In this document: one piece after another, positions 1,804-63,985 of the stretch | Numbering within the stretch: the stretch's first letter is position 1 | Layout of the letters: every line of letters starts with the position of its first letter | Program-made: the position numbers and the translations under genes | From: Octopus vulgaris | Lineage: Eukaryota | Assembly: GCA_951406725.2 (NCBI GenBank) | Contig: OX597816.1 | Location: 149,234,001-149,298,000, forward strand | Direction: 5' to 3' | DNA: 64,000 bases | Notes under the pieces: model-generated | Told to the model about the DNA's origin: nothing | Seen by the model: the letters and a program-made list of their open reading frames with translations, nothing else | Databases searched by the model: none

Positions 1804-2163
1804 GTCAGTTGGGCTGTTTAGTTTCAGTTTGGTATACCATTTTGGTGTGGGGACATTGCTCGTCTGGAATATTGTTGGTATGGCATTCGGCTTCAGTAAG
1901 ATACGTGGGTTCTGCATAAACTGGAAGTTCTGTTCGAAACAATGAGGTTCAAAATGCAGAGTGCAGATTCGAAATCGGCGCCGTATGCTCTGGTCATCCG
2001 AACAGGCCATGTCGAGGAAGTTCTCTATCTGGCTGAAACTAATGTTCATGTTCTGGGCCCAGATTCGACACATTCCCCGATCTTTGGGGAAGCAGTGTAG
2101 CCTGATATGACGAGGGAGTCGGCCATCATGACTTGAACAACCGAACGCCTTACATTGGGGCAT
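1804..2163 (-). CDS. THAP zinc-finger domain protein A, coding exon 1 (120 codons, phase-0 donor)
   Basis: MPQCKAFGC...LHCFP...W...RICTLHF...LKPNAIPTIF has the complete C2CH THAP signature, the conserved P/W/F residues and an AVPTIF-like box. Donor GAC|gtaagg at 1804/1803; the rest of the listed ORF reads as intron. Confidence 0.92.
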
Positions 2164-13876: not shown

Positions 13877-16800
13877 CTTGAGAGGACTATGATTCAGAAA
13901 TGTAGATCAGAAAAATAGAAACAAATCAGTTTAGAGAGGTAAGTTATGAACATATAAAGGTAAAAATGAAATTTCTTATTAATTACCAAGGGAAAGAAGA
14001 AAAAGAAGCTAGCACATGTATGCATGTACATCTGTCAATTTAATACAACAGTTAAGTGGATTGAGTAAATAGAGTTGCAATACAGGCAATCTGACTGCAA
14101 ATGAAATGGGTGAAAAAAAAGCTGTATATCTATTGTTTCATAAACTAATCTAACAATCTATGTGCACACAAGTGTGCTATATTAAAAAGCAGCAATGCAT
14201 GTGTGTAAAATTTGGGACTGTGAAAAATCTTGTCTAACAGGTTTCAGTAATATTACATCTCATGCTAATTTTTTTTTATGCAGTAAGAAAAACTATTTAA
14301 AAGAACAAACAAAAAATTTTTACACTAGAACATGCCAATTCGAACCATCCTGACTATCAATATGAATAGTTATCACAGTCTGTTATATAATGTTAGACAA
14401 CAAACTTATGGATAACTAAAACACAGATGACTCCGCATTACATATGAAAGTTCACAATGACTATCGAAAAAGCAGTTAAATAAGGAACAAAGAGAACAAA
14501 AATAAAAATAAAATTATGAATAAAAATCTAATAATTTAGAAGTGAGTACATATTTACAATATTTGAATGTTTTTTTTTAAAAACAATTTAAAAGGTTCTT
14601 TTATACAGGTGGAATAAACAAGTTTCAATAAAAAGCTAGTTTCAAGCAATTTTCCAATTCTAACCTTACAATAGTATGGATATTATCTACCTACACACAT
14701 ATTCATATACACATATAAAATACTAAACATAATATACACACACATCTGAGTTGGGTAAACAATTCAGAAGAGGTGACATTATCAGTCTACATATTTTGCA
14801 TAACCTCAGGAACCACTTCACAGTTGTAAAGGTGAATTGTATTGGGATGATGAGCCTTTGACATTATATATCAACCTACAGGCAACCAACCAATTTAGAA
14901 AGACCATATATTCTCTTTTAAGAGAATCTGGGCTGGCAAATCACTATACAATTAATTTAACACGTTAACTTTGTCAATGTCATTTTAGACCTGACAATGC
15001 TCTATATATTATCCTTACCTCAAACCAAACAAATCATTTCGATATATCCAAATATTCCAACCACACCAGGAACATTACTAGTATTTAGTTTTAAATATTT
15101 CTATCAGACTCCTACATTTTCCTGTAAATGAACATATATATATCTTAAATAGTGCTGTTTCTAGAAGTAGCTTTAAGGAGAGAATTAATTACCAATGTTA
15201 ATATCCAACCTTACTCAAATAAATGCAGGAGACATACAAATATTAGTACAACCCACTCATCAACTTAATAGCACCAAATCCAGTTAATAGATGCTTCTTT
15301 ACACACCTCAAGGAAGACTTTCATTCACAACACAAATGTTACTAGATATTTAAAGAAAACATTATCAGGCTCTCTTATTCAACCACCAACAATTTTGCTA
15401 AAAATCTTATGTCTAACATTTCTAAACTCAACAATTCTAGTGAATCTAGCATTCCATGTAGCTGCTCCAACCCCAGCTTGTCCCTGGTTGACTTCCATAT
15501 ACAGTTTACCAACACAATGTGAAAACAAAATCTGCCTTGAAAGCATATATCAGTATGAATTTGAATATTTTAAAACAAAATAATATGTGCATTCATCTTT
15601 AGAAATCCCAGTAAATACAATCATACATCTGGGAACTTAACAAATCTCTACCATTCCAACTCAGTTGAAAATACATGAATAGAGTGAAATCATACTCTGG
15701 AAACAAGGAACCCTGTAACCTTTGTATGGCTGAAAGTTTGGTGATCGTATTTGCAAAGGTAACCATTATTGAAGAAAATTTCTGAGCTTTTTCCTCATAT
15801 ACGCATTAGGTGCTTAAGATGTAGAGATATTTTAAAACAATTAACTACCCTGACTGCTAATGAATTCTGGATACCTATCATTTAATTCATTTCTCAATTT
15901 TAATCACCACTGATTACTTCCCACAATTTATCATAATTATCTTAGTTTTCCTGCATATCTTTTCATGCTAATTCCTTTTATTTCTTATAACAAGGTTTGT
16001 CTTTCACCATCTTTATATAGTCAATTACTTTAGTCCTTTATCTATTTATTCATCATCATCATCATTCAACATCCGTTTTCCATGCTGGCACGGGTTAGAC
16101 GGTTTGACTGAGAACTGGTAAGCAAGGGAGCTGCACCAGGTTCCAACCTGATTCCTTCTATTATAAATATTCCTAATACTAAGATCAGGATTACTAATGC
16201 TATTGTTCCATAAAGGTTCACCTCCATGGTTATAATGATGGTGACAATGACAATAAAAAAATTTTTAAGTAATAGATTGTGTTAATATTACTATTATCAC
16301 CAATATTATTATCATCAGGGCAGTGAAGTGATAGAATCATTGGAGCATCAGTCAAGCTACTGTGCTACAATTGTCCACACACTGTGTTCTGAGCTTGAAA
16401 GTTGCTTTGGATTAACTTTGCTGTGCGCACCTTCAAAGACAGTAAAACATCAGTCAAGTGTTAAGGTTGTTTTAAATTGAAACCTAACCAATTTTCTAGC
16501 TATGTTTGATACAGTTATTAGTACAGCTATTGTTATCATTACTATCACCATCATTATTAGTATCTTTTATTATGATGATGAATATTGTTAGAGAGTTCAA
16601 TGCATTGTGGTATTTTTCTAGCTCTCCTATGTTCTGAGTTCAAATCCTGCTCAAGTCAACTTTACCTTTCATCCTTCTGGGATCAATGGTATTGAATAGC
16701 CACCCCTTCCTTCAAAATTGGTGGTTTGTGCCTAATTAGGAACAATGAAGCATTATTTTTATGGTCATTATTATTGTTGATGATGATGTAATTGTGAATG

Positions 16801-24617: not shown

Positions 24618-24675
24618 TATTTCCTTATTTACTAGCTAAAGGCTTTCAAGCCTTTAGCTAGTATATAAGGAAATA
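24618..24675. repeat. Near-perfect palindrome: 28-bp arms, 1 mismatch, 2-nt loop
   Basis: tatttccttatttactagctaaaggctt-tc-aagcctttagctagtatataaggaaata. Confidence 0.95.
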
Positions 24676-25354
24676 ATCACTACCTATTTCATTTTCTTTT
24701 TGTGGAATAAGAATATCCAAGACTACAATTATCTGATGTGGTGTCCTTCCATTGTAGTGGAACCTAAGGAGATCTGACTACTATTTTTAGAAGATCTAGT
24801 AACCACGTAAATGAAACTGGTGAATGTATAGATGTTTTGGTCTACATTCTGTTACCATCTCTGGATGGTAATCGTGAACACAGAGTTCGTTTATAAACAA
24901 CGTTACTTGTTGCACTGGCACAAGTCCACAAATGCAATAGGTAACCAACCATAATGTGTTACTTTATCGACTCCAGAGAGACGAAAGGCAAAATTCAACC
25001 TTGCCAGGATTTGAACTTAGAATCTAGAACAATGACATCATATACTGTAAAGCATTTATTCAATCATGACGCGTTCTACCATTTCTGCCGCTTTCACTGC
25101 CTTCATATTAAAAAAAAAATCGATCGTAACAGGGTAACTTTAACAACAGTAAATATATCAAATAGCAAAAAAAAAAAGAAAAAGTTCGGTGAATAAAACA
25201 GTTGAAAAAAGAGACGAAAAACATGCACCCTTTTTCGTTTTTGCTTTTGTTGTTTTGCATTGTTTTTTATAAACATATCCAAACAAATGTCAATAGAGAG
25301 GAAAAAAAAAAGAACAAGAACAAATTTGAATAAAAACTAAGCAGTCATTCTACA

Positions 25355-26314
25355 TCATACCGATGTTTCTTTAAAGTGTCTTTTCTGCATGACCCTTTTT
25401 AAATTCCTTCGCGGTAAGGTAGCCACAGCACCTGTTGATTCTCTGTGTCCTTTGTGCGGGGAATGTGGTAGCTTTTTTAGTTCTCTCCCCAGAAGAGAGA
25501 CACTGCTGTGACGTCTGTAATTGCTATCATTTGCTTCTTGCTCCAACAGATGTATGCTGTTTCGCCGCTTGTCCACCCATTCATCTATTTCCTTTTCTAA
25601 GTGCGACGTCCTTTTACGATGAAGGGACACCCACTTTTCTAAATCCGTTTCCCTATTTAAAGCACTCTGCTGACATTGACCAACCCATTTCTCTAAATCC
25701 CTCTCCAAGCTAGCAGCATTCTCTCGCTGCTGGATCTCCCATTTTTCAAGGTCTCTATCCAAACTCACTGAAATATCATGATAGGGTACTGGCCATTTAT
25801 GAAGAATTCGTTCTTTGTTCAGTATAGCAGTGGGACGCTTACACATCAATTTTTTAATATTTTTATCCAGACTAGATACTTCTGTGTTCAGACCTTTCCA
25901 TTTATCTACACCTGAATAGTAAGATTGATTAATTTTCGCCCATTTTTCGAGATCACGGTCCAAGCTGGAAGCTACATCATGTAATTGACTAGTTGTCCAC
26001 CTGTTGAGTGGTTTATGATGAGATGGAGTGCTATGTTGGCTAGCCCACCTTTCTAGCTCTGCTAGGTGTGAGGCACTCCCATGATGTCCACTGCTCAGCC
26101 GTTCCATATCACCCTCAAGCAGGGACTCACTGGTCTCCTGTTGTAACGACCAGTTTGGGGTTTCCTCTCCAAAAGCAGAAACGGCATCTTGTTGCTGTTC
26201 CTCCCACAATGCCAAATCTCCCAGGGCAGACGCCGTACCTTGCAGGTCATCTTTCTCCTCCTCTTCCAGAGAAGAGTGGCTACATGGCTGCTCTTGATCC
26301 AGTTTCGGACGGCT
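25355..26314 (-). CDS. Large exon encoding an orphan protein segment with about 18-aa helical repeats (SLxRDLEKW), 319 aa
   Basis: 960-nt open frame in AT-rich DNA. It extends 33 codons upstream of the listed TTG to a phase-0 acceptor gtaactttag|AGC, and ends either at the stop after ETSV or at a phase-0 donor TCG|gtatga (25361/25360). Confidence 0.8.
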   Translation of the reverse strand, partial: SRPKLDQEQPCSHSSLEEEEKDDLQGTASALGDLALWEEQQQDAVSAFGEETPNWSLQQETSESLLEGDMERLSSGHHGSASHLAELERWASQHSTPSHHKPLNRWTTSQLHDVASSLDRDLEKWAKINQSYYSGVDKWKGLNTEVSSLDKNIKKLMCKRPTAILNKERILHKWPVPYHDISVSLDRDLEKWEIQQRENAASLERDLEKWVGQCQQSALNRETDLEKWVSLHRKRTSHLEKEIDEWVDKRRNSIHLLEQEANDSNYRRHSSVSLLGRELKKLPHSPHKGHRESTGAVATLPRRNLKRVMQKRHFKETSV

Positions 26315-26399
26315 CTAAAGTTACAGTCACACAAGTAACATAAAAGGATACATTTCCCACAAAAAGCTTATGACAGCTGATCTAACGACAATAACGCAT

Positions 26400-28950
26400 C
26401 AGTCACTGTTTTGCTTTAAAGTATAGGGTAGTACGCTTCACTTGAAATATAGTCAAACCTACAGGCACTTATTTCTCTCGGTCTCTTTATCATAAACCCA
26501 AATTACAATATTTTAAAATTGTAAACAGAAGTTACATTTATTAAAAAAAAAGTAAATGAAACAAAATACTTTGAAATTTCGAGATTTAGATAGAATTTCA
26601 GTGAACAAAAACTAAAAGTTCAAGATGAATGTATATAAGCAATGTTCGAAATTAGACCTCGATTTATTTCTAGTCATTCATTTCAACAAATGACAGCGCA
26701 TTCCTTTTATCTTTGACTTTTTCAAAATATATCGATTCAACTTCTTATCGATAATAAAACGATTTTAAATGCATTATATGTATATATATATCAATGAGTC
26801 GTAATATTAATACATAATGCTAGAAACAATTATTAAAGTGTGGTATTAGAAATAAACGCAAGCAAAAACATTCCGCTCGGGGATTAAAATCGATCTCCGG
26901 TTTCAGTGAAAGTAATTTTCTTTTGTTCCAATAAAATTGCACAGAAGGAAATGTCGCCATCAATTTGGTCAGTAATTCCTGGAAAGCATCCTTTCAATCA
27001 CTTTCAACAGAACATTGAATATTTTCGTCATATGAAAAAAGAGAAATGTGTTATGTCGATGTAAAAATCCAAATACATGTGCACAATATATTGTTTGTTT
27101 TCAGCTATTTTCTAGAAGAAAAAGAATGTGGGAAGAATACAAGAAAAGAGAGGATTCTATTAACTTCATCGTCCAAAGTGGCTTTGACTAAAATTAAAAA
27201 AAATAATCTGCTACAAACCACATGATATAGATTTGCAGGGAGAAAGTACTTCAGTAGGGTTTCCGGAATTTTCCAATGATCAGTGGGATAGCAGCATCAC
27301 ATAAGTGATTCCTTTTCTTTTTAAATAAGCGGATTCTGTTGAATGTTTCCCAAAAGACAGCGAATAACAGTAAATTCCATTACAAACAGGGAAAGAAGAG
27401 ATGAATGAGGGAGAAAAAATGCACCTGTAGTCAGCAGTGTGATTTTATTCCAATAACGGTATTGAAAGTAAGAACAACTCTATTTCCAAATACATTCCAT
27501 TCCTTAGAGCATGTTTTACTAATATTTCATTTACGAAAATTTGGTCCTTGTTCAAGTACCTTTATAATCGTTTTTCTCATTCTTATATAGAAGCAGTGAG
27601 ATATATAAACACATATATGGAGCTACATCTTTACAAGCAAATACATTTTAGCTCATAACACATCTATATTAAAAAGGAGAGTGATACACGATAGAGAAAG
27701 ATTAGCTTATGGCGAAAATAAGCTTATTGTTTCAAGCAGGTGCTAGCACGGTTCACTGTATTCCATTAATTGTTTGAAACTGTTATTGTTGTCCGAACAG
27801 TTATTCCAACTGCCGAAGGTAGGAACGACAGTCTGCTTTTATGATAGTTGTTAGGAGTAGTGAGCATGCGGTAAATGGCACAGACATCTCCCGCCATACT
27901 GCCTGCTGAGAGAGTGAGTGACAGCGAGCGAAGATAGAGAATGAATGAATGAGAAGGAACTAGTCAGAGAATGAATGAGAGAGAGAGAGAGCGATGTACA
28001 GAGAAAGAGAGAGAGAGAGCGATGTACAGAGAAAGAGAGAGAGAGAGTGAAGCTGAGAAAACGCCAGTCGTCCGTGGAAAAACATACGAGGTAGAAAGAA
28101 ATCTATTTGTTGACTGACGAATTTAATGAGAAAATTAATTCAGGATTTTTATTATAAAAAATAAAGTAATGTCGGTGAGTTAGTGTTTTCTCCTCAGTCA
28201 AAAAGACACAGAGTATCAAGAGTGTTAATGTGCAATTGAGAAATAAATTAGAAAAAACAGTGTAAGAGCTACAGCTACGGTAATATAATGTAATTTATAA
28301 CAATCTTGGAAGTTATGAAAAGCAAACTGGAAACTATGGAAAGGAAAAAAAAAATTATAGATGAGAAGTGAAGATATTTTAAAAGATAGTAGCAAGTGTA
28401 ATGTTAAGGTTGGATAAGAAAGTGGCCGAAACCCAATTTGTATCGATAACACGAATTATATTTTGTCGATCGGAAGGAGAAAAATGAATCTTAGAACAAG
28501 CGTAGTTAACGACACTTAATTAGTTAGCAGTAGATCATACAGGGGTATTGGGACGATAACACGCCAATGAGGTGTGCAGGAATCATTAGGTGCCAACAAC
28601 TGTGCATACATTATTCCTACACCTTGTCATAAACGGTTGACTGGGGGAACATTCATCAATGTTGGAATTCAATCGTACTGGGTTAATGGGGAGGCGCTTA
28701 CTATTTGCTTGATGCATTACATGTGCAAATCACTGATTAGGTCACGAGTTCGCTCCCTCGTTTCTCATTAAATTCAATTATTTACTTCACAAGTAGACCA
28801 GGTAAGAAAAAGAATATGAACGACGGGATGCTGGTGCGAACATTGAATCAATGAAAAATAAACTGAAGGTGGTATATATAGGATGAAAATCTTTAGATTA
28901 TCAGTTAACCTCTAGAAAGAGTTTAACAAAATGAAAAATCTGTTCTATTC
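26400..28950. promoter_or_regulatory. CpG-retaining promoter-like region with a GA-rich tract, possibly bidirectional
   Basis: Frequent CGs; (GA)n with a duplicated 28-bp unit at about 27975-28050; plus-strand donors ATGTCG|gtgagt (28174) and CAG|gtaaga (28801). Confidence 0.45.
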
Positions 28951-28997
28951 TCGGTATTGACGAATGAGTGACGACAATGATATATAAATAAAATATT

Positions 28998-29392
28998 TAG
29001 TGGCTGTGTGGTAAGTAGCTTGTTTACCAACCACATGGTTCCGGGTTCAGTCCCACTGCGTGACACCTTGGGCAAGTGTCTTCTACTATAGCCTCGGGCC
29101 GACCAAAGCCCTGTGAGTGGATTTGGTAGACGGAAACTGAAAGAAGCCCGTCGTATATATGTATATATATATGAGTGTATGTGTGTCTGTGTTTGTCCCC
29201 CTAGCATTGCTTGACAACCGATGCTGGTGTGTTTATGTCCCCGTTACTTGGCAGTTCGGCAAAAGAGACCGATAGAATAAGTACTGGGCTTACAAAAGAA
29301 TAAGTCCCGGGATCGAATTGCTCGATTAAAGGCGGTGCTCCAGCATGGCCGCAGTCAAATGACTGAAACAAGTAAAAGAGTAAAAGAGAGAG
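28998..29392 (+). mobile_element. Near full-length tRNA-derived SINE (octopus-type)
   Basis: A-box-like tggctgtgtggtaag, B-box-like ggttcagtccc, internal TA/TG run, (gtaaaaga)n tail. Older copies at about 17210-17370, 30230-30360 and 53975-54100. Confidence 0.85.
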
Positions 29393-32108
29393 AGTCTGCT
29401 GCAACTATATAACTAAGTAAATGGATCTCCATTGTTTTCAACAATTTCTGTGGTTCGATCAACTGAACTACCTATTCATTGAATAGCGTGTAAGCTACAG
29501 AGAAATCCACAGACACGTGTATCTCTGACGTAGTTATCAAGAAGAATCAGCGCAACAGTGTGATAAAGATAGCTCTTGAAATAATAGAGTGCATCAGACC
29601 GGCTTCAATACAGTTTCCGTCTACCCAATTTCACTTACAATGATTGGGTCAGCTCGAAACATTTGCTAAAGATGTCAGGAAGTGAGATTGAATTTGGGAC
29701 CTTACGACTGCCCTGCGTAACAACTAAGCTATGCCTGCGTCCATACATTAATAGATTTTCAGTGATGACGGATAAATAGAAAACTACTTAGTGATTTATA
29801 ATTGTTCACCCCTCCTCCTTAGCCATTATAATACTCTTTTTACATAAGATATACTTCAAAATATGGTATTTTGCCCCAAACCAATCCAAGTATCTAGACA
29901 AGAAATAAATGCTCAACATTTAATTTTTTCTTTACTTGCCAGTAAGACAAATTGATTATAATTGAACAAATGTAACCTGAATATTTCTTGACTTTGGAAT
30001 TTTTATCCTGTAGCATCTGACCTCCAGTTCCAATATAATCTGTATTGTATAGCTTCATATTTCATAGGAAGTAGAATGTTATAACTTGTGTTGTTTATAC
30101 TTCCTTTAAAACAATTTAGTAATGCAAAGTGCTTGCAACTGGAAGACAAGGCAGGTTGCAAACTTAAATTTACAAAGTTGTTATCACTGCAGCACTAATA
30201 ACAGAGCCCATGAATAAATAGATTACAGGTGCAGGTATAGCTTTGCAATTAAGAAGTCTGCTTTGCATGGCACCTTGGGTATTTTGTACCCTAACTTAGG
30301 GTTGACCAATATCCTGTGAGTAGAAGTTGGTTGAGTGAAACTATACAGAAGCTGCCATGATTATGTAGATATCTTTTGCCATATGTCAGCATAGGGTGTA
30401 AACACGGGTGAAAATCCAGTGCTCTTCAAACAAAGTCCCCTAAATTACATATGATCCCATGTCATTCTTGTTAATTAGAAATGCAGTGAACCACTCAATG
30501 ATTAAATTGTTGAAAATTTTGTTAAACAATGACATCATTGTTCCATAAATTGAAAACAAAAGTATCTATAATTATAAAATATAATGCAGTAAACAAATGT
30601 AGAATGTTTTTATCCCCAATATAAATTTCTGAACAAGAATAAACATAAATAATGGATTTTTCTATGAAGAGATCAAAAGTTCAAGGCTTTGTGATAAATA
30701 CAAGAACCATAAATGGTTTGCTTTTCACAGCACATTCCATTTCCCTTTAATGCATCACAACTATCTACTTACACACCAACAGAGAATTCCTATAACAGGT
30801 ATAACTTTAAGAGGAATGAATTTTGCTCTCAGGTAAGTTATATGAAGATAAACTTTCCAGTGTCATTCCCATTACTGGAAGGATTAGGGTATCCAACATA
30901 TGTATGTGTGCATAATGAATATTTTAACAAACTTCATTAACTTAGAAAAATAAATAAAAAGGAATAAAAAAATAGACAATAAACCTCCTCATAACCAGCA
31001 GCAAAAGCAATCGAACTGAGTAGTAAAATAATATATGTGATAGAAACATCATTACTCATTCTTATAATTCATGAAGTGGAATCACAATTGTAAAAAATAA
31101 TGTTCTCAGGGTCAAAGTATGACCTTGATAGAAAAATTCCAGATTGACATTATATATTAGGTTATGCACCTTTTCAATTACAATGAGACTGTATTTTTGT
31201 ATGTACATGTGTCACATGGAATATATTTCAGTTGAATTACTACTGGAACATGACAATATTGGAACCACTCAGTAATTAAATGCCATAAATATCTAAGGTA
31301 CAGAATTAAATTTTATACATTCCTCTATTTCTGAAATAAAATCTCACTAGAATCAACTTTACTCTTCATCTTTATTGTCTCAATCAAATAATATTGATTC
31401 AATTAACTATCCTGCCCAAATCTATGACTCTGTTTCAATTAGAAAAAGTATATATGAAACAATATACCATATTACATTGTACAATGGAAACAATAAATTC
31501 CATGTTATCAATGATAAATGAAGCCTAGAAATAGTTTGAGATCTATTTCATAGCCTGACAAGTGCCCATAAATGTTACAAAATTATCTAAGTTGTTGGGC
31601 CTGAAAATTATCTTTAACTTTACAATCAAAATATAGTGTTTGCTGTAACACTAGCCACTATCAAAATAATGAACCATGTTGGTTAAAGTATTCATCTTGG
31701 GAGAGTTGCTTACTTTAATATAATACTTCTAATATACTATTTTGTCATACATTTAAGGAAAGAAGAATTATTAAAATAGTCTCAGCATTTGGTCCTTATA
31801 TGTAGCAAGGCTACTGTGTATACATTTCCACTCTAAGTTTGACACCAATTCTACAATCCAGTAAATAAAGTTAAATACAATAATTTTAAAAGTTAACATC
31901 TGTAAAATCTTAGGTTCATAGCTGTCTGTTACATATTGTCAGATTAAGAGGTAAAAAACTCTCTCTGTACATATTCAATTGTGAAATGGTTAGCAAATTC
32001 ACTTCATATAATAATTCACATTAGAAAATATATCTAATGTTAGCTCCAAGAACTAGGAATTAGTTGATCATAACTCAGTGTTAGAGTTTTAACAATACAA
32101 AGAGTTAA

Positions 32109-34068: not shown

Positions 34069-34118
34069 TGTTGAGAACCGGTGGGTCTGCTTTGATATTT
34101 GAACATTCTGGGTATCAC
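34069..34118 (-). CDS. 50-nt linker exon, phase 1 to phase 0 (xDTQNVQISKQTHRFST)
   Basis: Strong acceptor ttctttctgtttcag|GT and donor ACA|gtaagt; open in the frame required by the upstream phase-1 donors. Confidence 0.65.
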
Positions 34119-37567: not shown

Positions 37568-38691
37568 CTAGCAGTCACCATTTGATAGACATAGAAAATA
37601 ATCTATAACATATTTTAATCCAAATCTACAAAGCATAAACTATAAAAACAAACAAGGTTTCTATAAATACAGATACAATATCATCACACTCTATCCTATC
37701 ACCAAAATTGATACTTATCAAATGCTCCATCTAGAGACAAAATGAATACCTATGCAGGATAAAGAACAAAATTTTAGACTTATTCCCTACATCTACTTGA
37801 ATCTGAAGATATGAAGGAAAAAAAACCCAAGGTTAATGTCAATGAAATTAAGTCACAAGCTTCACTTACAAAAGTATTAGCACAACTACAATGTTATTTT
37901 ATATAAGTCTCTTAAATATACCAAGTAGTATATTACAGCAAAATATTTTCTTGGTAATTTACATGATTAAAAAAATATTTCCTTTTCTCTGAAATGCATA
38001 AAAACACTGAAATTAAAAACCTCGGGAAAAGACAACTATAAAGAAAAGAAAAAGAAATGATCTATACCCATCGAAGATAAAAAGTCTTATGTTGAACATT
38101 CTTGTTCAGTTCAAACTAAGATCACATAACGTACAAATGTTGAGTACTGTTAGTGTCTTTATTAGGTAAGTCAAATTGCAGGACTTGTGCTAAATTAATA
38201 TTATATTTCTAAATATCGACTAAACATATCGTTTTTTATTTAAAACGGTCTTTCAAGTATAAATAGTAAGCGTTCTTATATAAACATGATACTAAACATT
38301 CGTTTATACAATAGCGAAATATAAAGGATAGAATTTAAAAGCTGAACGTAAATTAGTATAGTTACAAACGGAAAGACAAAAACAATTTTAAGAGACGATA
38401 AGAGCATGAAATGCAACCAGATTAATTGTCTCTATAACTTCTCTACGTTATAGATCTAGCATTCTCTCAATACTCCACCTCCATCATTAGAGAAAGCTTG
38501 TACATTGCATGACGTCAAACTCAAGTCCGACTCAGGTGGATTCTCAAAATGTTTCTCTCACTCTCACTACGCTGATACTACTTAACTATCTCCCTCTTTG
38601 TATCTATTTCTCTCCTTCATACGGTCTACGTTATGTATAAGATACCAACAGCAAAACGTTGCCTGTTTAGTTCCCTAGTTTTACAACTCAC

Positions 38692-39133
38692 CTTTTTGGT
38701 TCGGCGTCTGAAAATTGAATCCGTATCTAGCTTGGAAGCGCTCATACCAATTATTACGGAAGCAAAATTCATTGTAACCAAGGCTGTGTGCTACTTCAAC
38801 AGCTTTTCGCTTGATTTTGGTGGCATTTAATTGTACTCCTTGACGACGAAGCTGTAAGACCCATTTGTATATGGCCTGTTCGACATCTCTATAAATTGTA
38901 CTTCTAATTCGCTTGCGTTGTGACGAGCCATTGTCTGTGAAATCTTCCAAAATACGCGCGCGGTTTTTCATAATAGTTGATAATGTTGTCGCTGGGATAC
39001 CGAATTCGCGGGCGATAATTTTTTTCTTTTTTGTGCCTTCGTCTACGGCACGTATTATAGCCACTTTTGTCTTGAGGAGCAAACCTTTGCGTTTGCAACC
39101 ATAAGGCTTCGATTTATTGATACCAGAAGTCAT
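38692..39133 (-). CDS. CENP-B/Tigger-type DNA-binding exon (HTH_psq/CENP-B_N + HTH_Tnp_Tc5), 147 codons, phase-1 donor
   Basis: KRKGLLLKTKVAIIRAVDEG...IAREFGIPATTLSTIMKNR and YRDVEQAIYKWV...R.QG..L....IKRKA...A..LG..EF.....W.ERF..RYG; donor AAG|gtgagt; no DDE domain follows. Confidence 0.92.
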
Positions 39134-40779: not shown

Positions 40780-42330
40780 TATAAAATACAAGCTTCTCTG
40801 TTACATGTCGGTCCGTTAACATTAATTTCTTTTATATTTTTTAAAAAGTAAGACAGACGGTACCCATAATTATTCAGAAACCTTCCAAGATTAGATGGAG
40901 AGAAGGCATCCTGAAACCAGAGATAAGACTTAAATGCTTGCAACATAGTGCATGCTGCTAAGGGCATCGAAGTGGGCCACAAAAGGATTTGAATAATGAA
41001 CACAAACAGCTGGAACAAATACTACAAGGCAACCTGCTATTATTTCAGTTCCATCAATTCATAACCCAAAATGATAAAATCCAAGTGTCACAATAAATAA
41101 CACAGCATTCTATCTGATGCTTCAATGGCTACCAATTTGTTGCTCTAATATAAATGAAAGATGTTCACAGCACCTAGGTTTCACAAGCAGTCACTTGCAT
41201 TGTAGAAAAATCACGGAGATCTGTCAAGATTCCAAACATCAAGTTCAAATTCAATTATAATGGTTTGCTACAATAAAACCATTTGCAACTCAGTACTTAT
41301 TAGCATTAAGCACAAAGTATTGGTTAAGGAAGGAAAGTAGGTTCCAATATTTTGCTTTCCTCATGTTGAATGGAATCACAGTGACAAATGTCATAATGAA
41401 CTTCTGTGTGGGACAATAACATAAGATCTTCAGAACCAAGTTGAAATTACAAAACTGCTACCTGATCAGAACAGCATAATTAACAATTATCTTAAAAGTT
41501 TAATTTCAGAAATGTAGACTATTTTCCCTTGATGTACCTGGAAAGGTGGCGGCTCATGCTGCATTCAAGTCCCCTTTCAACTCGGTAATAAATGAAAGTG
41601 CTACAGAAAGCATCAGCAAAGGAACTGGGATGATAGAGGTTCGAAGAAGTTGCAAATTCATAATTTGGAATGAATATACAATGCTTCACAAAGTAACAGA
41701 AGTTTTGGACAGGGCATTGTATAAACAAAAAGATAAAGGGGAAATCCTTGCTTTTATGTTGGAGATTTTAGACAGATACGGGCTGTTGCTTTAGGAGAGA
41801 CAAGAACAGATGAACATTTACTTAAGATCTCATATCTTTGGAGAAATGTAATGAAATTACACTTATCTACCAATTTAAAAGACAATCCATTTGCTTATCA
41901 GTTAATTGGCCAATCTGTAAACAAGTCACTGCAACAATAGAAAATTCAAACCAAATGAAGAGGAAGAATTAATATGGGAACAGTAAGCAAAACACTACCA
42001 TCTGCTCACAAACCAAAAGGAATGTCTACTCAAATCTTTCTGAATAACTATCAGAATCACAGAAAGAGTAATATTAGTTCTAAAGAACAGTTGCAGCTGA
42101 TGGCATCAACACAGTTTCTGCAGTAGCTTCTACTAAGAACCATTGTTACTAATCTTTTGAAATAGTACTTGATATCCAAAAAGAGTTTCTAAATTAACTA
42201 GAAGTTTCAGGAAACCTACTACAAAAATTTAAATTTTTAAATAAGGAAATGGCTATCATGCTCCTTATAACTTGAATTCAGCAGGAACAAAATGTCACTG
42301 GTAAGACTATAACTTTTTGGACATGACAAA
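40780..42330 (+). mobile_element. Decayed Helitron RepHel fragment (PIF1 helicase region)
   Basis: AHAAFKSP...ISKGTGM..V...CKFIIWNEYTMLHK..EVLDRAL, GDFRQI..V, YLWRNVMKLHLSTN and an EFLN.LE.SG-like segment; many frameshifts. Confidence 0.85.
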
Positions 42331-44529
42331 GAGGTATTCATGAGTATGTTTAAGAATCTTGTTTCCTGACCCTGTGGTTTAAGACTCACTTTCACTGCTC
42401 AGCCCTTGAGCAAGTATCTTCTACATAAATAAATTAGAAAACCTTTCAACTCACCCCACTCCCGTATTATTGCAAAATATTCCCAAATACACGTTTGACG
42501 TGAAAAATTAGTATCTTTTATCTCTTATGTATACAATGTCATTTGTAAATTTTCTTTTTCATTAAACACAAATTTTACAACTCTTAACTGATCGGATTGT
42601 GAAAGTTAGGGTTATGTTCATTGAAGATCATATGATCTTCAGTATTTTTACACACACTAACAAAAAATCTGGGTTCATTGATTCTGAGGAACAATACGAT
42701 AAACATTGGATTTTGTTTCTCTATCATAAGCAAGATAAGGACAAATATAAAGGCAAAAGCTATCCAGACCAAATTATTTGACAGGCAATACATCCAAATC
42801 ATCAATTCTCATCCTTAATAGAACAGAAAATAATGAACTTATAAAAATTGATAGACACAATGAAATGGAAATCCATACATTTTTTTTTGTATTGATTCAA
42901 AATATAAAGGCAAAATTTAAATATGTAAATAATGAAATACTTATATTTCATTGTATATACAGCATAAAGCAAGAATTGTAAGTTTCCATCATTCCTAAAT
43001 TAGAAATTATTATTACTAACAAGTTTTATTTAGATGAAATACGAAACATCAAAGAAACACGTCAAGATAATTTATGAATAGAAGTGAAAGACATCACAAA
43101 TATCATCACTACTCGATCACCAAAATGAAAGCAGCTTTAGGCTATGGTTTAAAATTAAAACGACTACATATTTTATGTGAATACTTTAATCTATAGAAGA
43201 ACCCACAAACACTAGTCAAGTTAAGTTTACAGTTGAATTAAATCTCTCACTACATAGAATCATTCGATAATTAACACTCAGATTAGATTGATGATATACG
43301 CAATCCAAAGATTCAATGTTACACATGTAGAGTGAATAAAACACTAGATTTGATTAGGTCAATAGATTATCCACTCTTTTACATTCTGATAGTCATAAAT
43401 AACTTATACTTAACCCCCTTAATGCTCAAATTATTTTCTTCATCCCAAATTTTCCTTCTATAACTTTATAAGAACGAAAAAAAAAAACTTGGATGCGTTG
43501 CCAATATTCATTGAAATGTGTGGTTTTTAGAAGACACTTTAGTCTTATGGTTAATGGCAATGCTTCGGTATTCGTATTAAGAGTGACATTTTAAAAAGCA
43601 ACTGCTTTTAGATATATCTCTAAAATCGTTGGTAAATTAATAATCAATTCTTGTGAACTCAAAAAAAAAAGACCATGGGCATTAATGAGTTAAGCTTGAG
43701 GTTTAAAAACTGCTAGTCAAGTTAAGATAAAAGAGAATTAACTTAGTTGGAGGTGATCCAACGAAGAAACAAACTTAAGCCATTAGCTTCACTTAGAAAC
43801 TCAACCACAATTTAATATAACACTTTTCACCAGTTTCAGAATGACAGTGAGTTAAAAGAAAAATCAATAAATTTCAAACTAAAATTATCATATAATCCAC
43901 AACCTTTCTTATACTGAGCACATACGGTCTCTCCAGATTTAGTAAGCGTGTAAACGTTCACTAGTATATTTGTTCAGTATTGTTTTAACAGTTCTTCTAA
44001 AATAAATTGCATCTATCAGTTTAACAGCTTGTGTACGAGTAAATTAAGAACATTCATCTTTCCAAATATTGAATAAAAGTATCCCATCCTTTTCTATTTA
44101 TATATAACAATCGTTTCTTCAAGTGAAATTTACATACATAGTGATGGTTTGTCACTCTTTTTGATCTTAGAAACATACCATATATTATTGTTTATACAAT
44201 ACCGAAATAGAAAGAACAAGGAATTTGAATGCAGAACGTAAATAATATGGTTAGGAACGGAAAGACAACAGTGATTTTTAAGAAACGATGAAGATACAAA
44301 ACGTGACCATAGACTGATTGTCTAGATTTACTACGTTATATATCTAGCAGCCAGCCTCTAAATTCTCTACACACTACATGACGTCAAACTCGAAGTCCAA
44401 CTCAGGTGTGTTCTCATATTGTTTTTCTTTTTCTTTCTCTCTCTCCAACGTTGATGTTACTCGACTCTTTCTATGAGTGTATTTCTCTTTCATATACTCT
44501 ACGTCTGCTACCACTACCATCACACTTTT

Positions 44530-44990
44530 TGTTTATCTCACGTTCTTAGTCAGGCCCATGAAAACTGTTATCTAGCCAGAAAGGGCTCTTATCAATTATT
44601 CAAACGCAAAATCCACTACAATCAAGACTGCGTTACTTCTACAGTTTAATTTTTGATTTCAGTAGAATTTAGTTGTACTCCCTGACGACGAAGCTGTAGG
44701 ACCCATTTCTAAATGGTCTTTCCGACATCTTTATAAATTGCACCTCTAACCGTCCAACCCATGCCAGCAAGAAAGGACGACGTTAAACGATGATGATGAT
44801 CTCGCTAGTATTGCTATGAGGCATAGTCAGACAAAGTACGAGTGCAATTTTTCATAATGGCTTATGTCATTGCTGGCATACCAAAATATTTTTTGTTTCT
44901 TTTTTTTTTTTTTGGTACCTTCATCTGCAGCACGTATAACAACCATATAAGATTTCGATTTACTAGATGACATTTGCTTTTGACCAAACA
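44530..44990 (-). pseudogene. Pseudogenised duplicate of the CENP-B HTH exon
   Basis: Aligns with 38690-39140 (e.g. ttgtactcc.tgacgacgaagctgta.gacccattt); has indels, a premature stop, an altered donor context and an insertion of about 50 bp of SINE tail at about 44749-44800. Confidence 0.88.
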
Positions 44991-50490: not shown

Positions 50491-50903
50491 CTTGAGCTTT
50501 TCTAACTCGCTTGTCACTAATGCCATGAACAAATCGGAAAGCCTTTGAACAAACTCTAATAAACCTCCCATCAATATTTAAAAAATATTCCCATGTACAA
50601 GTTCGACGTGAAAAGTTAGGATCTTTTCTCTTATGCAAACACTGTCCTTTGCAAGCTTTCTTCTTCATTAAATTAGACAAATATAAATTTTGCAAGTTCC
50701 AACTAGCCAAGTTATGAAAGTTAGTAAATAATGTGTACTTCACATGATCTTCAATATCTTTATAAGAACAAAATATTTGAGGGCACTGACACTGGGTTAC
50801 AATATCATAAACAGTGGTTTGTGTTCCAATATGTTTTTCCATCATCAATTCTTTTGTTTTTGTACAGCACAATTGAGAGGTAGAACAAAGGCAATTAAAT
50901 TTT
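50491..50903 (-). CDS. Cys-rich putative DNA-binding exon resembling the N-terminal region of Sola-type transposases; phase-1 donor
   Basis: CQCPQIFC...F.NF.NL..WNLQNLYL...R.CTWEYFL...IRVCSKAFRFVHGISDKRVR; uninterrupted 137 codons; donor CAAG|gtaaga. The 5' boundary is uncertain (phase-2 acceptor at 50903, or ATG at 50845). Confidence 0.75.
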
Positions 50904-59037: not shown

Positions 59038-59309
59038 AAGAGTTTCTCTCATACGAATTAGTTGCAAGCAGCAATGGATTTTCAGGTTTAATATCATGAC
59101 TTTGAGGTACTTTGGGTACATTGTTGAATATTGTAGGAACAGCATATCTCTGAAGTAAAGCCCGCCCCCCTGGCTTGATCATTTGGAAGCAAGATTTTTC
59201 AAAATGTTGACTGCATATGTAGGTGTAATGGCTAGGAGTCCAGTTCTGACGGGCAAGAGCACGGACCCATTTTTTCCACAGACCTGGCTTTTTACGCACA
59301 TCAGGAAAT
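59038..59309 (-). CDS. THAP domain protein B, exon 2 (phase 2 to phase 1)
   Basis: ttcctttccttttcatttag|A TTT CCT GAT gives FPDVRKKPGLWKKWVRAL...WTPS....ICSQHFE...AVPTIF; donor CTT|gtgagt. Confidence 0.92.
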
Positions 59310-63914: not shown

Positions 63915-63985
63915 CTGTGGAAGGAAATGCCGCTTCCAGTCTTGTGTTTACTGCTACAACCAAACACAGCACAGAAGTTCACCAT
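63915..63985 (-). CDS. THAP domain protein B, exon 1 (MVNFCAVFGCSSKHKTGSGISFHR), absent from the ORF track
   Basis: ATG at 63985, CxxxGC motif, donor CAG|gtaaga in phase 2, joining exon 2 in frame to complete the THAP domain across a 4.6-kb intron. Confidence 0.92.

Follow-up and report, generated by a model that had tools for sequence, protein, structure and literature searches.

The window analysed here, a 64,000-nt stretch of Octopus vulgaris DNA, carries on its minus strand a 319-codon reading frame built from Trp-anchored, predicted helical repeats. On balance, this repeat exon probably serves an octopus BTB transcription-factor locus with multiple promoters as an alternative N-terminal module, with a promoter of its own and splicing to a constant exon. 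The repeat domain is a real orphan that the first-pass annotation of this DNA had misplaced, and it lies in a more interesting locus than was first proposed.

The repeat exon and its protein

The features of the exon and its immediate surroundings are:

24806..29769: CpG-retaining island holding the repeat exon and a promoter-like region at 26.4-28.1 kb
25355..25360 (-): candidate phase-0 donor, with its GT at 25360; left unspliced, it encodes the terminal Val and the stop
25361..26314 (-): repeat exon as far as this donor, 954 nt or 318 codons, both ends in phase 0
25370..25414 (-): basic C-terminal segment, which we take to be NLS-like
25442..26230 (-): repeat array, residues 29-291, about 13 supported (15 possible) units of 14-19 residues each
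25550..25819 (-): core, residues 166-255, in which five units keep an exact Trp spacing of 18 residues
26105..26107 (-): first in-frame ATG, codon 70, with a purine at -3 and G at +4
26315..26316 (-): candidate acceptor AG, weak, belonging to the upstream TAG
27560..27580 (-): possible leader exon of 7 codons with an ATG; its phase-0 donor, at 27559, is weak

The minus strand is open from stop to stop between 26314 and 25355, and the remaining five frames over this interval contain 11-28 stops apiece. About 1e-5 frames of 319 codons would be expected by chance in the window. The 319-aa frame had been recognized in the first-pass annotation, and all five of the repeat units quoted there were found inside it. 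Also as described there, an ATG is lacking for about 70 codons, the first being codon 70. Genuine repeat units lie upstream of this ATG and are conserved like the rest (3 differences in 35 relative to P0002, the homologue introduced below).

Among the five best 9-residue cores, nucleotide identity at the three codon positions is 73, 81 and 43%, and the degenerate residues that they share use different codons in 25 of 40 cases. Tandem Repeats Finder identified no DNA-level tandem repeat in the exon. Thus, from the third-position divergence, the differing codons and the lack of a DNA tandem repeat, the units are kept at the protein level. Judged by its sequence, the exon is coding and under protein-level selection.

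The unit consensus is S-L-[DE]-[RK]-[DE]-L-E-K-W, followed by nine variable residues. Self-similarity at a lag of 18 residues has a z of 8.9, a value attained by 0 of 1000 shuffles, and is at background at lags 17 and 19. Trp residues occupy positions 37, 55, 90, 106, 125, 139, 174, 192, 210, 228 and 246; the anchor spacing is exactly 18 over Trp174-Trp246 and 14-19 before that, with Leu73 and Leu156 counted as anchors. P0002 carries a Trp at the Leu156 anchor of the window, which restores the register. The Trp-anchored period of about 18 residues proposed in the first pass is therefore borne out, but not every unit: the fifth one quoted (256-273) has no Trp and a repeat-profile score of only 3.0, and both of the last, Trp-less units, this one included, are doubtful on these sequence criteria. 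The described acidic N-terminal and basic C-terminal ends were recovered, with a net charge of -15 over residues 1-72 and +6 over residues 289-319. Basophilic [RK][RK]x[ST] sites occur at residues 233, 234, 250 and 267, in three successive units.

Over residues 184-283 the hydrophobic period peaks at 3.58-3.60 (amplitude 103 vs 39 at 3.5). A heptad coiled coil does not fit the repeat protein, as the period is 3.6 rather than 3.5. The peak fits a Leu/Leu/Trp stripe running straight along a predicted helix with 18/5 geometry, as anticipated in the first pass, where 18 residues were equated with five helical turns and a Trp/Leu stripe on one face. The monomer prediction suggested at that time, made with AlphaFold, returned one long continuous helix at residues 178-280 (pLDDT 82-91 over 191-260) and low confidence elsewhere; the model was built from 2 sequences only (mean pLDDT 56.7, pTM 0.26) and bears on helicity alone.

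The sole relative is P0002, a Logan protein of 285 aa with 94% identity, which differs from the window at 1 of 72 core residues (184-255) and terminates at the same unspliced stop. It was the single homologue among 3606 candidates of 175-559 aa, and the repeats matched 0 of 5767 candidate proteins of 560-2000 aa. When 1.84 billion representatives were scanned in full with HMMER, two matches emerged, P0002 and P0003. The latter was rejected as a homologue: its similarity is compositional, in a 2266-aa tandem-repeat protein with a different unit and 25% identity over 26 stretches. In Pfam-A the best E-values were 0.48 for the whole protein and 0.003 for a fragment, all below curated cut-offs; the best E among PDB sequences was 0.18, Foldseek gave 0 matches to the protein model at E <= 0.001, and two ESM Atlas searches gave no usable match. 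No paralogue of the exon was identified elsewhere in the window, and no Rfam match at 22-31 kb. Likenesses to Myb, UIM and the paxillin LD motif were rejected, because key positions differ and Pfam support is absent. Exact look-up of seven single-exon translations from the window in the protein set found 0 of 7, and a control search with the CENP-B head of the window among longer proteins matched 0 of 367 candidates at E <= 1e-10. The control reveals poor eukaryotic coverage, and thus blanks in these protein databases say little about eukaryotic proteins. On these searches, the repeat domain appears to be a real orphan, without a family in sets that cover eukaryotes poorly. The lineage restriction claimed in the first pass is in keeping with one 94% relative in such eukaryote-poor sets, and a strong match to a known family, which would have told against it, was sought in Pfam, PDB and Foldseek and was not found.

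The octopus BTB locus and its heads

The window corresponds, on sequence matches, to the variable region of the octopus locus annotated LOC106877732. This identity follows from two THAP heads and a trunk exon of the window that match O. bimaculoides models sharing one constant BTB region. The other modules of the window are:

1804..2163 (-): THAP head, orthologue of "Thap13" XP_014782202, with a phase-0 donor
34069..34118 (-): shared trunk exon ("linker"), 50 nt, phase 1 to phase 0, present in 8 published models
38692..39133 (-): CENP-B-type head (CENP-B_N + HTH_Tnp_Tc5), with a phase-1 donor and its own CpG island
50491..50845 (-): Cys/aromatic-rich module, 118 aa, with a strong phase-1 donor, outside CpG islands
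59038..59309 (-): THAP head exon 2, with a phase-1 donor; joined to the trunk exon in the Thap9 protein model
63915..63985 (-): THAP head exon 1, orthologue of "Thap9" KOF74722

The supplement of PMC10027918 lists Octopus models in 17 rows, representing 16 distinct proteins, with one Pro/Gln-rich and BTB constant region in common. Eleven of the 17 rows are LOC106877732 and 15 of the 17 lie on scaffold KQ422521 (accessions XP_014782193-223, KOF74722 and also XP_029634403). Their heads are THAP, CENP-B, Psq or FLYWCH domains, N-terminal of the BTB domain. These models are annotation products, not experiments, and the Thap9 cDNA reads through its own donor. By eye, the window differs from the O. 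bimaculoides models at a few residues, which points to a closely related Octopus that is probably a different species. The two THAP heads, the trunk exon and an exact junction match, in which the published Thap13 cDNA is spliced to the constant exon at precisely the donor that was predicted in the window, identify LOC106877732 on KQ422521 as the same locus.

Eight of the 16 listed models contain the trunk exon; all eight pass directly from it to the constant exon, none with repeats. Six join the constant exon without the trunk exon, in phase 0, and two join one exon later. Every model with a stated scaffold position enters the next trunk exon downstream. The four heads located downstream of the linker, at 352-376 kb, go straight to the constant exon, and so do Psq1 and Thap10. 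On these models, the shared trunk exons form a nested series, which each head appears to enter at the next one downstream. The constant exon, entered in phase 0 by these heads, is absent from the 64-kb window and therefore lies to the left of position 1. The constant part is 566 aa, as calculated from the lengths of Psq1 and Thap2. The first part of the constant exon encodes the C-terminal end of a THAP domain, the rest of which is supplied by the Thap2, Thap4 and Thap10 heads, and the ancestral gene was probably THAP-BTB.

All modules identified in the window lie on one strand, in an order compatible with splicing in cis, and the membership of the repeat exon in a locus with DNA-binding heads, as the first pass had it, is upheld by the THAP and CENP-B heads on the same strand. 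The O. bimaculoides models listed in PMC10027918 include neither the repeat exon nor the window CENP-B head nor the module at 50.5-50.8 kb. More broadly, the repeat motif is absent among the sequences listed in five supplementary files, whose tables cover only proteins with DNA-binding domains and were compared over the first 400 characters of each cell. The window CENP-B head is intact yet missing from the published list of octopus CENP-B factors. The Cys/aromatic-rich module has no Pfam or PDB match and a structure model with a pLDDT of 39.6; it is probably another head of the locus.

The unit made up of this module and a CENP-B head is tandemly duplicated (50491-50845, 44190-44973, 42465-42717 and 38302-39133). 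Decay has been reciprocal, with an intact module and a broken CENP-B head in the first copy and an intact CENP-B head and a broken module in the second; the broken CENP-B copy retains its CpG island. Nearby, at 41504-41794 (+), is a PIF1-like helicase fragment (E 8.9e-6) that is probably a Helitron-type remnant. Two possible small exons with good splice signals, at 35370-35344 and 35214-35170 (-), lie between the CENP-B head and the trunk exon and are absent from the published models listed. Between the repeat exon and the Thap13 head, where CpG is scarce over a long distance, consensus-like donors (by eye) at 15028, 12722, 12210 and 6448 (-) possibly mark further small or non-coding exons.

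Promoter, splicing and the placement of the repeat exon

On the same strand and within the variable region of the locus, the repeat exon is flanked by the trunk exon and the Thap13 head. By the next-shared-exon rule, an exon in this position would be expected to enter the constant exon in phase 0. Its own island is consistent with a promoter nearby: the exon is 1.3-1.5 kb inside the downstream edge, comparable distances of 0.9-2.2 kb were found for all three intact ATG-bearing heads, and the trunk exon, THAP exon 2 and the Cys/aromatic-rich module are outside CpG islands (3 of 3). Octopus gene bodies are reported to be methylated and promoters mostly unmethylated (PMC9476566). The 21 kb downstream of the repeat exon are CpG-depleted and contain 19 sense AATAAA vs 43 antisense, with 1 sense vs 11 antisense in the first 3.9 kb. 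Such CpG depletion and scarcity of sense AATAAA over 21 kb would be as expected for an intron.

On the opposite strand, strong plus-strand donors were identified at 27819, 28175, 28802 and 29011, and the minus strand has only one donor above 1.5 bits in 26.3-29.8 kb. A divergent transcript from the same CpG island, at 27700-29700 (+), is possible. The promoter-like region contains a 28-bp tandem GA-rich repeat at 27978-28047, and a 58-bp near-perfect palindrome is located at 24618-24675.

The reading frame extends one codon beyond the candidate donor, to the stop at 25355. The donor at 25360 scores 0.8 bits, below the 2.4-7.4 of the four donors that published models use, and ranks in the top 6% of 3662 GT sites, on a generic matrix whose training was not on octopus. 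Within the frame, 14 GT sites score above -1; phase 0 occurs at only 3 of these 14, including the one at the last codon. At the other end, 34% of 3454 AGs on the strand score at least as high as the candidate acceptor AG at 26315..26316 under the generic splice model. Since the upstream stop TAG itself gives an in-phase AG, and since so many AGs score equally, the claim to an acceptor is weak. The first-pass statement that the frame begins at an acceptor is thus right as to the presence of an AG, but this AG is weak and automatic from the TAG.

We judge a head that replaces the DNA-binding domain more likely than a tail because all eight trunk-exon models skip the repeats, the CpG island is promoter-proximal and the donor is in the phase of the constant exon. 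The C-terminal tail envisaged in the first pass is disfavoured by the same CpG and phase evidence. As an own-promoter head, the repeat exon would be transcribed from within the 24.8-29.8 kb CpG island, with translation starting at the ATG at 26107 or in a short upstream leader exon. Splicing from 25361 would then lead, in phase 0, into the constant exon that lies left of the window. The product would have about 815-890 aa, with a head of 249-325 aa ahead of the 566-aa Pro/Gln-rich and BTB part. This repeat-BTB isoform, having no DNA-binding domain, may be brought to chromatin when its BTB domain pairs with that of a THAP, CENP-B, Psq or FLYWCH sibling. Its long helix would offer a repeated Leu/Leu/Trp stripe for multivalent docking of a cofactor, or of the twin helix in a BTB dimer. 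The isoform could then either co-regulate with the DNA-binding isoforms or compete with them, and the basophilic Ser/Thr sites might serve as a switch. Granted own-promoter splicing to the constant exon, such a role as a partner without DNA binding is plausible by analogy, at a little under even chances. BTB isoforms that form heteromers have precedent, as do isoforms whose ends bind proteins in place of DNA (PMC11426971, PMC5666082), including Mod(mdg4)-67.2, the variable end of which binds protein (PMC5666082, PMC11426971).

Several observations count against the own-promoter head. Among the sets searched, no model or protein has the repeats joined to anything, and P0002 has the same stop as the window. 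The donor, the acceptor and the leader-exon donor are all weak, repeat units lie upstream of the first ATG, and a single AATAAA, 295 nt beyond the repeat-exon stop, is compatible with a stand-alone 3' end. The stop shared with P0002, the weak donor at 25360 and this AATAAA would all suit a stand-alone gene, or an intron-terminated isoform, nested in the locus, and its own CpG island is equally compatible with that arrangement. The product would then be a repeat protein of 250-325 aa ending at 25355, whose last residues would act as a class I PDZ-binding tail and which could serve as a multivalent scaffold unrelated to BTB. We consider this unlikely. A terminal Val is automatic from any phase-0 GT donor, four other intact heads or modules in the window likewise run 9-69 nt beyond their donors to a stop, and the shared strand and matching phase would have to be coincidence. 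P0002 itself may derive from DNA as well as from RNA, and its Met falls on a TTG in the window, which suggests a prokaryotic gene caller.

Two further arrangements place the repeats downstream of the trunk exon. Because both ends of the repeat exon are in phase 0, as is the end of the trunk exon, it could be a symmetric cassette in one long isoform (DNA-binding head, trunk exon, repeats, constant BTB), which would also provide the ATG missing for codons 1-69. Skipping of the exon in all eight published trunk-exon models, the weak acceptor and its position in a CpG island, with internal exons outside, make this improbable. The same objections apply to a 483-aa protein without BTB, in which the CENP-B head and trunk exon would be followed by a terminal repeat exon as an oligomerisation or effector tail. 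This is the fusion of about 480 aa put forward in the first pass, and the continuation of every listed linker-exon model into the constant region, none with repeats, speaks against it. The phases permit it and the window CENP-B head is not among the published models listed, so that this head could have another partner and a minor CENP-B-repeat isoform is conceivable; no such protein was found among the 175-559-aa candidates, in a set whose eukaryotic coverage is poor by the control. We regard it as very improbable. That the exon is a dead or untranslated remnant, as the 69 codons without an in-frame ATG and two decayed modules nearby might suggest, is hardly credible: the 319-codon frame is intact, the units diverge from one another at third positions, and the 94% relative is itself intact and differs at just 1 of 72 core residues.

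Comparison with known systems and origin of the repeat unit

RefSeq already has the locus as one gene, and PMC10027918 lists its products, which it treats as separate genes derived from "BTB transposons" and not as one swapped-head locus. In the literature available without subscription, we found no published description of the locus as a swapped-head system or of the repeat exon. The closest described systems of BTB isoforms are Drosophila mod(mdg4) and lola, in which tens of variable modules, FLYWCH included, are attached to a constant BTB and Gln-rich region and some isoforms act via protein binding (PMC5666082, PMC11426971). The octopus locus resembles them in that 16 distinct models with variable DNA-binding modules have a constant region in common. 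It differs in order, with N-terminal variable heads that have apparent promoters of their own and a C-terminal BTB, and in its set of heads (THAP, CENP-B, Psq and FLYWCH). An N-terminal BTB with variable C-terminal exons was not found in the octopus locus, and we therefore do not file it as a member of the mod(mdg4)/lola group. TTK-type BTB has been reported only in arthropods (PMC11426971), and the BTB gene clusters of oyster are of a different kind (PMC12111275).

The layout is closer to that of the clustered protocadherin and UGT1A loci. In these vertebrate loci, many first exons with their own promoters are spliced to constant 3' exons. In the octopus locus, CpG islands cover the repeat exon and the heads that bear an ATG, and these exons may have promoters of their own. 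The variable exons of protocadherin and UGT1A are paralogues, whereas the octopus heads are mostly transposon-derived and enter several nested trunk exons; THAP, CENP-B, the Cys/aromatic-rich module and the repeats are mutually unrelated.

As a speculative extension, the locus may be an independently evolved octopus mirror image of mod(mdg4): a BTB scaffold that captured at least 16 heads, mostly transposon DNA-binding domains with their own promoters, in which one slot is filled by a rod of about 13 Trp-helix units, possibly from a CENP-B head, and the resulting isoform oligomerises with its siblings via BTB as a bridge or tuner. The single-locus reading itself merges the apparently separate octopus THAP-, CENP-B-, Psq- and FLYWCH-BTB "genes" into one combinatorial locus that parallels mod(mdg4)/lola with the order reversed. 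This alters the gene counts behind claimed transcription-factor expansions and provides a second system for studying the capture of transposon domains by a BTB scaffold. Among the heads, the repeat exon would stand out as one that binds no DNA, belongs to no family and is under selection, and it would make a tractable example of how repeat expansion within an existing gene can create a new domain.

With regard to the source of the unit, there is a tentative case, itself rather doubtful, for tandem multiplication of helix 1 of the second CENP-B/Tc5 helix-turn-helix, such as the one encoded 13 kb upstream. The unit is similar to helix 1 of HTH_Tnp_Tc5 (PF03221; PDB 1hlv) in its Leu/Glu/Leu/Trp/Val/Arg spacing. 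When the five best units are turned into a gap-free profile, residues 83-100 of the CENP-B head score 18.0, a value attained by 4 of 66,289 windows (3 of 937 Trp-anchored ones) in 171 E. coli ORFs, so that about 0.03 would be expected by chance among 407 local positions, post hoc; a smaller first null gave 0 of 18,614. This null set is bacterial, the likeness was spotted after the fact, and unrelated amphipathic helices give higher scores. The repeat protein differs from HTH_Tnp_Tc5 in lacking a profile match (neither the protein nor 7 fragments matched the Pfam model, at E up to 1 and 10), in lacking helices 2 and 3, and in repeating its helix about 13 times. DNA identity is only 20-25 of 54. 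The THAP helices of the published Thap2, Thap4 and Thap10 models are alike by eye, with the Trp shifted by one place.
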